Positions 34,473 through 36,148 of a stretch of 64,000 nucleotides of DNA are shown piece after piece. The DNA lies in NCBI RefSeq assembly GCF_013167455.1, contig NZ_CP038328.1; one strand, 5' to 3'. The first letter of the stretch is position 1; the number at the start of each line of letters is the position of its first letter. The translations under genes were made by a program, and so were the position numbers. The DNA comes from Escherichia coli O157:H7. GTDB taxonomy: Bacteria > Pseudomonadota > Gammaproteobacteria > Enterobacterales > Enterobacteriaceae. The notes beneath the pieces are model-generated. The model made no database searches and was not told the DNA's origin. It worked only from the letters and a program-made list of their open reading frames with translations.

Positions 34473-35191
34473 ATAAGAAACCTCAAAGATAGTGAACTTT
34501 ATAATTATTCTCGATACTTCATGGGTTGCTTCATCACCAACATGAGCTTCTTATGGTGTGCCCACTTGGGCCTAAGCAACCAGTTACCTCGTTTGTCAAG
34601 TTTATAGCTGGCTTTAACCATGGTCAATTGAAGTGATGAGCAAATGATGCTTTCTAAGAATAACAGGTTCCCAATAGGCTCCCACAAAGTGCATAACTAG
34701 TTGTTTTTCAAAAACGGTACATCCTATCGAGCATTGGTGCAACGCTAAACCGACCACTCCAGTGAACGTCAGTTTTTTCAGGCATTGCGCTGGTTTGGTT
34801 GATTTTTTGCATTTCAGAATTACCGTGCATTTTCAAATGTAGAGATTATTTTATCGATATATCATGTGGTTATGTTATTCAGCATCACTGTTCAGGAGGC
34901 TCAATAACGGGGTACTATACCATAACAACAGGAAGCGCCTGTCTCATTGCAAAAGAAAATTGAGATCCTCTCAAGGCATGAAGCTCTCACGAAGTGAATA
35001 TCTAATCTTATTAGATGTTAGCGTTGTGAAAAGCAATGATAAACAATACAGATTCGACGATAAATAAAAATCACACATTAAACTCCGGTGATATCTCTCC
35101 CTGCTAATAGCACTGATAGAGAAAAAAAGAACCCAATAAACATTGGGTTCTTTTATGTAATACCTTTCATACCATCGAAGAACTTCACATA

Positions 35192-36148
35192 TTATTTCTC
35201 CGATTTAACCCCGAATAAATCATAAATTAATTTAGAAGTGCCTGTATATATTTTAATCTTTTCCTTTGAGTTTGGGTCAAACGACTTAGCAAAGTCAATT
35301 AATTTCGGTGCAGCATCTCGCATTTTGCTTAAAATATCAGGGGCGAGCGTTCCTTCATTCACCAGATGTGACATCTTATCCAGATAGCCATCAAAATTCA
35401 TTTCTCCCCCATCTGCCAGACGCTTCATCTCTCCCAGGTACTTCTTCATATCACGTTGAGATAATTCTTCAAACTGAGCTTTCAGGTAGTTATCATTATA
35501 TTCATTAATATTCACTCTTCCTGCAAAATCTGAGTAGACACTAGAATATGAAAGGGAAATTAACAGCGAAGCAAATAATTTTAAGCTGTTGTCATCATGT
35601 TCCTGGCAGGCATTAACAAACGTTAAGAAACCAGAACCTATTGCTTGCAAATGTATATTCGCTAAAGGTTCATTATCTTTAGATTCCTCATAAAATAGCT
35701 GAACCGTGGAGGGAAGACCATTCTTGGTTTCTACATCAAAAGTACATCGTTCTATGAGTGTCGCATCTTTATTATCCTCGGGATTACATATACTATTAAT
35801 CGCGAAATGAAAAATAGCCCTGTCAACAACTGATGCAATAAATTCACGATCGTTTAATTCCTCATCAGTACAATCTCCAATATACTCATTGACACACATT
35901 TTGAGATCGTTTATTTGCTTAATTAACGTCACATTTTTTTCACGTGCAGTCCATAAATTATGAGTGATTCTTTGAATAAATAAATCTATTTTTGCAATAA
36001 TTATATCCCGATGACGCATCGTTGAATAATCAATAGATTTACCATATATACTATTTACTTTACCTTTGATTGCATCTTCATTATCGAATTGATTTGAATT
36101 GAGTGTTTTATTAAAGTATCCTGTTGCACCGGGTATTATCTTTAACAT
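35192..36148 (-). CDS. AT-rich orphan protein of unknown function (318 aa)
   Basis: Uninterrupted ORF, clearly AT-rich relative to both the prophage and core flanks; N/K/D/I-rich, no transmembrane segment or motif recognised; own AT-rich upstream region. Confidence 0.55.

Follow-up and report, generated by a model that had tools for sequence, protein, structure and literature searches.

We consider it nearly certain, from sequence comparison, that the open reading frame (ORF) at positions 35192-36148 of the window, by which we mean the whole 64,000-nucleotide stretch of Escherichia coli O157:H7 DNA that was analyzed, is the intact form of a gene that a frameshift has split into yjbL and yjbM in E. 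coli K-12. The gene belongs to DUF2713, an already catalogued, uncharacterized E. coli protein family, and the window copy occupies the family's usual place between zur and dusA. The spacer at 34473-35191 consists of the gene's terminator, the upstream region of dusA, 35 codons of dusA, an attachment (att) junction and the end of a lambdoid prophage. These identifications form the firm part of a larger explanation in which the islet containing the gene is a relic of a dusA-targeting element and its product is a silenced, conflict-type accessory protein. As a whole, we regard this explanation as probable on balance; its weakest step is the role in conflict, which is a guess. Coordinates are collected in Table 1.

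Table 1. Features in and around the DUF2713 islet (positions in the window)
Feature	Position	Strand	Basis and remarks
139-aa partner of Panacea-domain gene	33484-33903	minus	prophage cargo, outside islet
Panacea-domain gene	33900-34472	minus	prophage cargo next to attP, outside islet
Non-coding right prophage end, SKA5/mEp460-like, attP-proximal arm, 254 nt	34473-34726	.	SKA5 match
Orphaned dusA 5' end	34708-34830	minus	35 host codons (34726-34830, MHGNSEMQ...APMLD), 5 phage codons and stop (RMYRF-stop)
Prophage/chromosome junction (att core)	34715-34745	.	base-by-base alignment and blastn breakpoint
dusA upstream region within islet, about 290 nt	34831-35124	minus	contiguous with K-12
Candidate extended -10 dusA promoter, 14-mer GTTATGGTATAGTA	34913-34926	minus	sequence match
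Intrinsic terminator of DUF2713 gene	35125-35154	minus	scan; 12-13 bp stem, 4-nt loop, T-run
DUF2713 CDS, 318 aa	35192-36148	minus	ORF call and Pfam PF10897; intact, O157-type, class-1 allele of K-12 yjbL+yjbM
G+A7 tract	35934-35941	minus	DNA alignment
30-bp repeat remnant (10 residues, DATKDKLDNx)	36050-36090 (approximate)	minus	low-confidence N-terminus; window allele is the shortest form
AT-rich divergent control region of zur and DUF2713	36149-36466	.	GC 0.368

The reality of the ORF is not in doubt, as the probability of 318 stop-free codons arising by chance at its composition is about 3e-12. Its GC content is 0.341 (GC3 0.288), compared with 0.512 for the prophage and 0.510 for core genes, and the encoded protein is acidic (pI 5.2), rich in L, I, K, D and N, and devoid of any hydrophobic segment (maximum KD19 1.39). 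An earlier note on this DNA had described a long uninterrupted AT-rich ORF with a biased amino acid composition and no transmembrane segment, and we observed the same. The note had also called the gene an orphan without a recognizable motif, a description that does not hold: the Pfam DUF2713 model (PF10897) aligns over its full length (positions 1-235 of 235) with residues 84-318 of the protein (E=1.8e-143), and about 4,300 complete E. coli genomes have this locus annotated. RefSeq annotation places a "DUF2713 family protein" at this site in E. coli genomes and shows the order zur, gene, dusA in K-12, O157 and other strains. O157:H7 strain DEC4E carries an allele 100% identical to that of the window, and the exact window protein is encoded on at least 1000 contigs.

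Comparison with K-12 provides the link to yjbL and yjbM. In the K-12 RefSeq annotation, the DUF2713 gene is a frameshifted pseudogene between zur and dusA that formerly bore two names, yjbL (b4047) and yjbM (b4048). Its locus, orientation and flanks are those of the window gene, the proteins are about 85-87% identical, and the Pfam model, which was built on K-12 YjbM, is matched by the window protein from end to end. An A8-to-A7 frameshift divides the K-12 copy into pieces of 84 and 235 codons, whereas the window copy is intact; relative to K-12 yjbLM, the window allele has one 30-bp repeat unit fewer and G+A7 at the slippage site. The flanking genes are zur, yjbJ, dinF, lexA, dgkA and plsB, and homology to K-12 runs without a break from 34727 to 39400. 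Thus, the gene does not lie in a variable island, as had been proposed; prophage DNA is restricted to positions left of 34727. In the literature searched, we found no paper that discusses DUF2713. The yjbL-yjbM pair has been classed as a young, function-unknown operon (PMC12218254), and one K-12 line evolved on lactate acquired a point mutation in yjbM whose fitness effect, taken alone, was about 1% (PMC2784333). The "yjbL-yjbM" of Klebsiella plasmid papers are unrelated genes.

The minus-strand orientation of the gene places the 720-bp spacer at its downstream end and not, as had been supposed, before its start. The AT-rich upstream region reported in the earlier note does exist, on the other side of the gene, where it is shared with zur; the spacer is no part of it. 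GC content in the spacer is 35-39% outside the 105-nt dusA stub and 45% within it, and the only ORFs are short, as had been noted (the longest is at most 67 aa). The terminator starts 38 nt past the DUF2713 stop codon, its RNA is predicted to fold with an energy of -23.3 kcal/mol (z=-3.5), and it is 97-100% conserved between most allele classes. Together with an AT-rich promoter region shared with zur and a single coding sequence, this strong terminator makes the gene a self-contained unit. The earlier reading is right in part: the gene is foreign, AT-rich and non-housekeeping, and it stands alone, with a promoter region and a terminator of its own. In the dusA upstream region, the 14-mer listed in Table 1 as a candidate promoter is the sole element in common with the upstream region of dusA at empty sites, and the match is a weak one (13/14, E about 0.3-0.5).

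The decayed gene that the earlier note had suspected in the spacer proved to be the orphaned 5' end of dusA. Residues 1-35 of K-12 DusA are 100% identical in the stub (tblastn), which RefSeq labels "tRNA-dihydrouridine synthase, incomplete" in lysogens, and free phages end likewise, in ...APMLDRMYRF-stop. Perfect identity to K-12 dusA stops at 34727, and an imperfect repeat runs on for about 12 nt; the att junction falls at 34726/34727, and no K-12 homology was observed beyond it. The window sequence from 32322 to 34753 is 98.6% identical to phage SKA5, and the sequence from 34666 is common to other dusA lysogens. The rest of dusA is absent from the window and must lie outside it, indicating that the prophage extends past the left window edge. 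This arrangement is the one described for dusA-specific integrative elements, which swap the dusA 5' end upon integration, so that a "remnant dusA 5' end" comes to lie at the junction on the far side (Farrugia et al. 2015, PMC4482086). A small RNA, the other content suggested for the spacer, was not detected: no Rfam family reached its gathering score (best scores 17-27 bits against thresholds of 40-100, nearly all on the terminator hairpin), and the spacer contains no meaningful repeats.

The prophage also accounts for the Panacea cassette, beside which the earlier note had placed the DUF2713 gene, in a variable interval. Both proteins of the Panacea pair are 100% identical to those of an SKA5 gene pair, the first of which RefSeq annotates in strain HSP60 as a "Panacea domain-containing protein". 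The free phages mEp460 and SKA5 have an integrase gene pointing leftward, followed by a 35-codon surrogate dusA 5' end pointing rightward, attP and the cargo, a layout which indicates that the Panacea pair is phage cargo placed beside the host stub upon integration. The same slot is taken by a different gene, of 534 nt, in other dusA phages and lysogens. The cassette thus belongs to the prophage, whereas the DUF2713 ORF belongs to an islet fixed in position on the chromosome.

Megablast of positions 34473-36400 gave matches in 4,378 of 5,426 complete E. coli genomes, always at a single site beside dusA, and 1,123 of the 5,426 contain the 176-nt sequence that we used as a probe for the empty site, where about 155 bp separate zur from dusA. 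The islet is therefore carried by about 4,300 genomes (about 79%) and absent from 21%, and most carriers have an intact ORF. A core gene kept in the same context throughout E. coli was the outcome that the earlier note had set against its own reading, and occupation of one site in about 79% of genomes comes near to it without reaching it. We found zur adjoining dusA, with no DUF2713 gene, in E. albertii, E. whittamii, Escherichia sp. E1V33 and two further E. coli genomes (L026 and L029) that a scan of species-representative genomes had brought up, and no member of the family was found in 100,044 such genomes. The empty sites in other Escherichia, together with the near-absence of the family elsewhere, indicate that the empty site is ancestral and that the islet is a derived insertion within E. 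coli.

The boundaries of the islet suggest how it may have arrived. It measures about 1.66 kb and spans about 34741-36400. Toward zur, occupied and empty sites cease to be homologous about 67 nt from the zur ATG, near 36400, and the part of the divergent control region leftward from there is islet DNA. On the dusA side, homology to the empty site restarts only at APMLDWTDRHC, which is also the insertion point of the present prophage. The DusA N-terminus reads MHGNSEMQKINQTSAMPEKTDVHWSGRFSV-APMLD in islet strains and MPAESHTVYPAYRFSI-APMLD in empty-site strains; the (A/P)YRFSIAPMLD type is present in all empty-site genomes, and this type or near variants of it occur in E. albertii, E. whittamii, Citrobacter, Enterobacter, Cedecea and other genera. 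The K-12-type end, by comparison, is 69-74% identical in amino acids and 88-91% in nucleotides, over DusA residues 1-35, to the surrogates of mEp460, SKA5, 1720a-02, PhiR47_1, a Stx2k phage and other phages. With its breakpoint at APMLD, the dusA 5' end at the att core is thus phage-type in islet strains and ancestral in empty-site strains. An islet that stops at the dusA att core and brings with it a dusA 5' end of phage type is most likely the remnant of an older dusA-targeting element. According to this moderately supported conclusion, the older element would have inserted at dusA and left behind the K-12-type 5' end and the DUF2713 gene, the latter as its surviving cargo.

The resemblance to dusA-specific elements is partial, as these share the att core end and the surrogate 5' end with the islet but carry an integrase and att repeats. 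We found no integrase ORF in the islet, no second att copy and no second ancestral dusA 5' end, and no phage-like DNA in comparisons with phage genomes that included a sensitive mode. Lacking an integrase and flanking att repeats, the islet is at most a possible relic of such an element. The alternative is that it entered the zur-dusA interval by an unrelated event and that phages later copied the K-12-type 5' end through imprecise excision. Such a history agrees with the lack of integrase and phage DNA in the islet, with the restriction of host-phage homology to 35 codons, beginning just 3 nt before the dusA ATG, and with the phage layout of integrase, surrogate and attP, which aberrant excision capturing a host stub would be expected to produce. 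However, the breakpoint coincides with the att core, and the K-12-type end retains RFS(V/I)APMLD through diverged codons (about 70% nucleotide identity to the ancestral type), which points to an imported dusA 5' end and not to a sequence that arose de novo. The K-12-type end is also found in Salmonella houtenae, in which the cargo between zur and dusA is different and comprises an STM4242-like outer-membrane protein and a dehydrogenase. We therefore regard unrelated entry as possible but doubtful, and prefer descent from an older dusA element.

The family appears to be both small and isolated. A profile search of 1.84 billion representatives returned one full-length E. coli cluster, fragments and a few distant relatives that are 22-29% identical and come from metagenomes only, on IS-rich contigs; of 5.8 billion proteins, a profile of this distant subfamily alone matched six, all unnamed. 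The DUF2713 model itself is matched at E<=0.001 by 14 of the 18 members of the family alignment, in which there is no invariant His, Cys or Glu residue and no known catalytic motif. Invariant positions in the family include K53, D55, W66, D100, R110, S200 and D207. Profile searches of PDB sequences gave no match, NCBIfam gave none to the DUF2713 protein, and PHROG gave two function-unknown families, covering residues 1-32 and 73-318. No DUF2713 gene was found in 50,697 phage records, and none of the distant relatives is on a catalogued plasmid. Apparent "plasmid" matches to DUF2713 look like mislabelled chromosomes or K-12 fragments, and we found no genuine plasmid carrier among them.

Structure prediction with AlphaFold was unusable when only close alleles were supplied (pLDDT 41). 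Addition of the distant relatives raised the pLDDT to 77.9 and gave a confident, compact model, except for residues 1-42, which are polar and have pLDDT values below 50. Structure prediction was among the checks proposed in the earlier note, and the model matches no known fold. From these data, the product is predicted to be a soluble cytoplasmic protein of about 36 kDa, in which the first 42 or so residues are of low confidence and bear the repeat, and an alpha/beta core has a unique fold.

The N-terminus raises the question of secretion, since low-confidence polar segments rich in S, T, N and I are found at the N-termini of all family members, as might be expected if DUF2713 were a type III effector or another host-interaction protein; in the window protein, the polar residues 1-42 are compatible with a secretion signal but not specific to one. 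An AT-rich gene, an orphan fold and diverse alleles would suit such a protein, and one distant relative (P0150) is encoded 1.4 kb from a gene that resembles an effector, combining a SopD N-terminal domain with pentapeptide repeats. This is the context of only one of four distant relatives, though, and the others are in IS-rich islands without secretion genes. No similarity to any type III effector family or fold was found, and commensal and laboratory-type E. coli, which are not known to have a working type III system, commonly carry the gene. We therefore consider a secreted effector very improbable.

In E. coli, deeply divergent alleles occupy this one chromosomal slot. At least 3-4 classes can be distinguished, and the other classes are 48-52% identical to the window allele. 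Class 1 comprises the window allele, the K-12 type and that of strain D72 (90-100% protein identity), whereas the protein of class 3 (strain WCHEC000837) is 52% identical to the window protein, that of class 2a (L009/P0177) 50% and that of class 2b (strain E400634) 48%. A class-2 allele is present in 365 of the 4,378 locus-matching genomes, and full-length class 2a was found in 365 genomes. Comparisons between classes give a dS of 0.5-0.85 and a dN/dS of 0.36-0.58 (about 0.45), compared with a dS of 0.03-0.17 and a dN/dS of at most 0.10 for zur, dinF and dusA in the same strains; the non-synonymous rate of DUF2713 is roughly ten times that of its neighbors. Given that dN is smaller than dS between classes (p<=1e-6), the ORF has remained a coding gene while its alleles grew far more divergent than the sequences on either side.

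Such divergence does not extend beyond the ORF. Flanking sequences are mostly about 90-100% identical between classes, the exceptions being a few lower 60-nt windows and the lower values of class 2b, and identity in the 3' two-thirds of the ORF is 50-70%. Within class 1, sequence blocks occur in all combinations, the pattern of a recombination mosaic. In sliding windows, pN/pS is about 1 in a few segments and never clearly above it, so that no segment stands out as positively selected. The protein varies in length from 318 to 340 aa through the 30-bp repeat, of which strain D72 has 2.4 copies (TRF) and for which the window allele shows a 30-nt DNA gap. A second variable site is the poly(A) tract, which is A8 in a related intact allele and A7, a -1 frameshift, in the pseudogenes of K-12, O111:H8 and strain 98223. 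The A7 frameshift stands on different downstream backgrounds in these three strains, and the exact K-12 A7 89-mer is present in 868 genomes, many of them laboratory strains.

The K-12 zur/yjbL spacer is a 526-bp "promoter island", one of 78, which is bound by H-NS in all compared ChIP data sets and whose adjacent genes are predicted to be foreign by several methods (Panyukov and Ozoline 2013, PMC3661553). Genomic SELEX has found that the sigma-70 holoenzyme binds the same spacer, where a yjbLM promoter is predicted (PMC3946193). In the window, one promoter-like site for the ORF is predicted from a consensus match (36344-36317), and no Zur box was found. The listing of zur/yjbL among H-NS-silenced promoter-island genes agrees with the 34% GC of the window gene; the data come from K-12, a strain other than that of the window, and concern regulation, not the role of the protein. 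H-NS binding at the K-12 promoter region indicates that the DUF2713 gene is probably silent under laboratory conditions, and in our proposed mechanism, H-NS would keep it so.

An H-NS-bound promoter island is also what one would expect if the gene were a decaying relic without present function, that is, silenced foreign DNA drifting to loss. Its pseudogenization in K-12, O111:H8, strain 98223 and at least 868 genomes, its absence from 21% of genomes and a dN/dS 5-10 times that of its neighbors are in keeping with such decay. However, among lineages in which about half of the synonymous sites differ, the ORF has remained open, with the excess of dS over dN reported above; most carriers keep it intact, and the predicted structure is confident and compact. 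These observations make decay unlikely, and we favor a functional, dispensable protein.

The combination of a kept coding sequence, fast non-synonymous change, divergent mosaic classes and inactivation at the poly(A) tract fits an accessory protein in a conflict and does not fit a housekeeping protein. We propose that DUF2713 may be a dispensable accessory protein in some genetic conflict, our leading guess being the exclusion of phages or other mobile elements. A more specific version, in which a stand-alone anti-phage defence or abortive-infection gene, as suggested in the earlier note, would encode a protein that senses a phage component and halts infection, draws on several of the same properties: the gene is foreign and AT-rich, forms a unit by itself between its own promoter and terminator, is polymorphic for presence and absence, has deep mosaic allele classes limited to the ORF, shows frequent loss of function that suggests a cost, and adjoins a prophage attachment hot spot. 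Yet none of the 5,027 defence-system models of PADLOC-DB 2.0 matched the protein at E<=0.1, and no nuclease, NTPase, TIR, SIR2 or pore module is recognizable in it. The gene has no defence-island context, as it is in no multi-system island and its chromosomal neighbors are zur and dusA. Its absence from the phage records and a pN/pS that does not exceed 1 also argue against this version, which we judge rather unlikely.

A comparison with the moron and exclusion genes of phages is instructive in this regard. The Panacea pair, which is of this type, and DUF2713 are both single AT-rich units beside the attachment site, strain-variable and dispensable. Unlike att-side morons, DUF2713 is on no sequenced phage and has a fixed chromosomal position outside the prophage, and it matches no known defence or toxin-antitoxin family. 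The most far-reaching proposal that we entertain is that DUF2713 might be the founder of a class of conflict proteins with an orphan fold: a single protein that excludes phages or mobile elements (a secreted effector being less likely), domesticated from an ancient dusA-targeting element and silenced by H-NS, with diversification into classes of about 50% identity by balancing selection and intragenic recombination, and with contingency-type switching off or resizing via the poly(A) tract and the 30-bp repeat. We offer this as speculation that is unlikely to be correct in full.

Two features appear from these sequence data to be new, namely the end of the islet at the dusA att core with a phage-type 5' end, and the allele classes whose divergence is confined to the ORF. 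About 80% of the genomes of the best-studied bacterial species carry a gene whose predicted fold has no relatives and whose allele classes are far older than the surrounding chromosome; that the K-12 copy is a pseudogene may help explain why it has been so little studied. The intact O157 allele is a ready reagent for tests of function in K-12. The spacer beside it is a textbook scar of prophage integration into dusA, and the K-12 dusA 5' end, itself apparently derived from a mobile element, suggests that the flanks of att sites can keep single cargo genes long after the element that brought them has been lost.

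The DUF2713 open reading frame (ORF), which is intact in the window, exists as a pseudogene in K-12 (yjbL and yjbM), O111:H8 and strain 98223, and we observed that in all three pseudogenes a poly(A) run has gone from A8 to A7, which shifts the reading frame. The strain 98223 pseudogene has lost its ATG as well, and that of O111:H8 carries a further 5-nt deletion. The allele blocks downstream of the shared frameshift differ among the three strains, so either slippage has recurred or recombination has spread the mutation. The region upstream of the ORF holds one arm of an 18-nt inverted repeat whose arms are 89% complementary, and the other arm lies at about codons 60-65; the repeat may be due to chance. 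In a published colistin TraDIS screen, the insertion frequency in K-12 yjbL was altered, at about -2.4 in all three colistin columns (PMC9687012). Given that yjbL in K-12 is a pseudogene fragment, this signal may represent polar effects on zur or dusA.

Database searches also recovered DUF2713 relatives of about 400-430 amino acids, which carry an additional N-terminal domain of about 150 amino acids and were found only in metagenomes, on contigs rich in IS elements. One such relative adjoins an effector-like gene (SopD-N plus pentapeptide repeats) and a KfrA plasmid gene, while another, judging from its sequence, appears to adjoin an autotransporter beta-domain. One metagenomic contig bears a truncated second copy of a DUF2713 relative. 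In addition, a metagenomic protein of 939 amino acids (P0162), with a hydrophobic segment at its N-terminus, contains DDYAARLSQLVKEGKLTPEQAKKLL six times, and these repeats match the C-terminal helical hairpin of DUF2713 (residues 251-291 of the window protein; E=4e-9).

At the dusA side of the locus, residues 1-30 of K-12 DusA are of the type encoded by the phage-borne surrogate 5' end. The DusA N-terminus of empty-site E. coli, in which zur lies directly next to dusA, and of other Escherichia species is unlike that of K-12, and Salmonella houtenae combines a K-12-like DusA type with different genes between zur and dusA, where its cargo encodes a dehydrogenase and an outer-membrane protein.

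The attP-adjacent slot of mEp460/SKA5-type dusA phages holds cargo that differs from one phage to another. The Panacea-domain pair occupies this slot in the window, SKA5 and strain HSP60, and a 534-nt gene unrelated to the pair occupies it in mEp460, O157 DEC4E, O111:H8 and N64. A 35-codon dusA-type leader (ending ...APMLDRMYRF and a stop) lies upstream of the slot cargo in phage and prophage states alike.

Coordinates of the features discussed, in the window and in compared loci (L-numbers; L001 is K-12)
Feature	Sequence	Coordinates	Strand
Panacea-domain pair, cargo in attP-adjacent slot	window	33484-34472	
attP-adjacent cargo slot	L035	4252-4785	
attP-adjacent cargo slot	L036	4359-5347	
attP-adjacent cargo slot	L002	3381-3914	
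Candidate extended -10 promoter for dusA (14-mer)	window	34913-34926	-
Poly(A) run (equivalent position in L001, L017, L019)	window	35934-35941	-
Inverted repeat arms	window	35955-35972 / 36214-36231	
dusA 5' end (K-12)	L001	3000-3104	
dusA 5' end type	L014	5155-5220	
dusA 5' end type	L038	6001-6126	
Long DUF2713 relatives and neighbours	L004	1187-2380, 3842-4777	
Long DUF2713 relatives and neighbours	L007	1077-1601, 4175-5455	
Long DUF2713 relatives and neighbours	L011	2759-4048	

Upstream of dusA, the sole element that the window has in common with empty-site strains is the 14-mer GTTATGGTATAGTA (13/14 match), a candidate extended -10 promoter of dusA. In the window lysogen, transcription from this candidate promoter would enter the dusA stub left by the prophage, heading for the Panacea pair.
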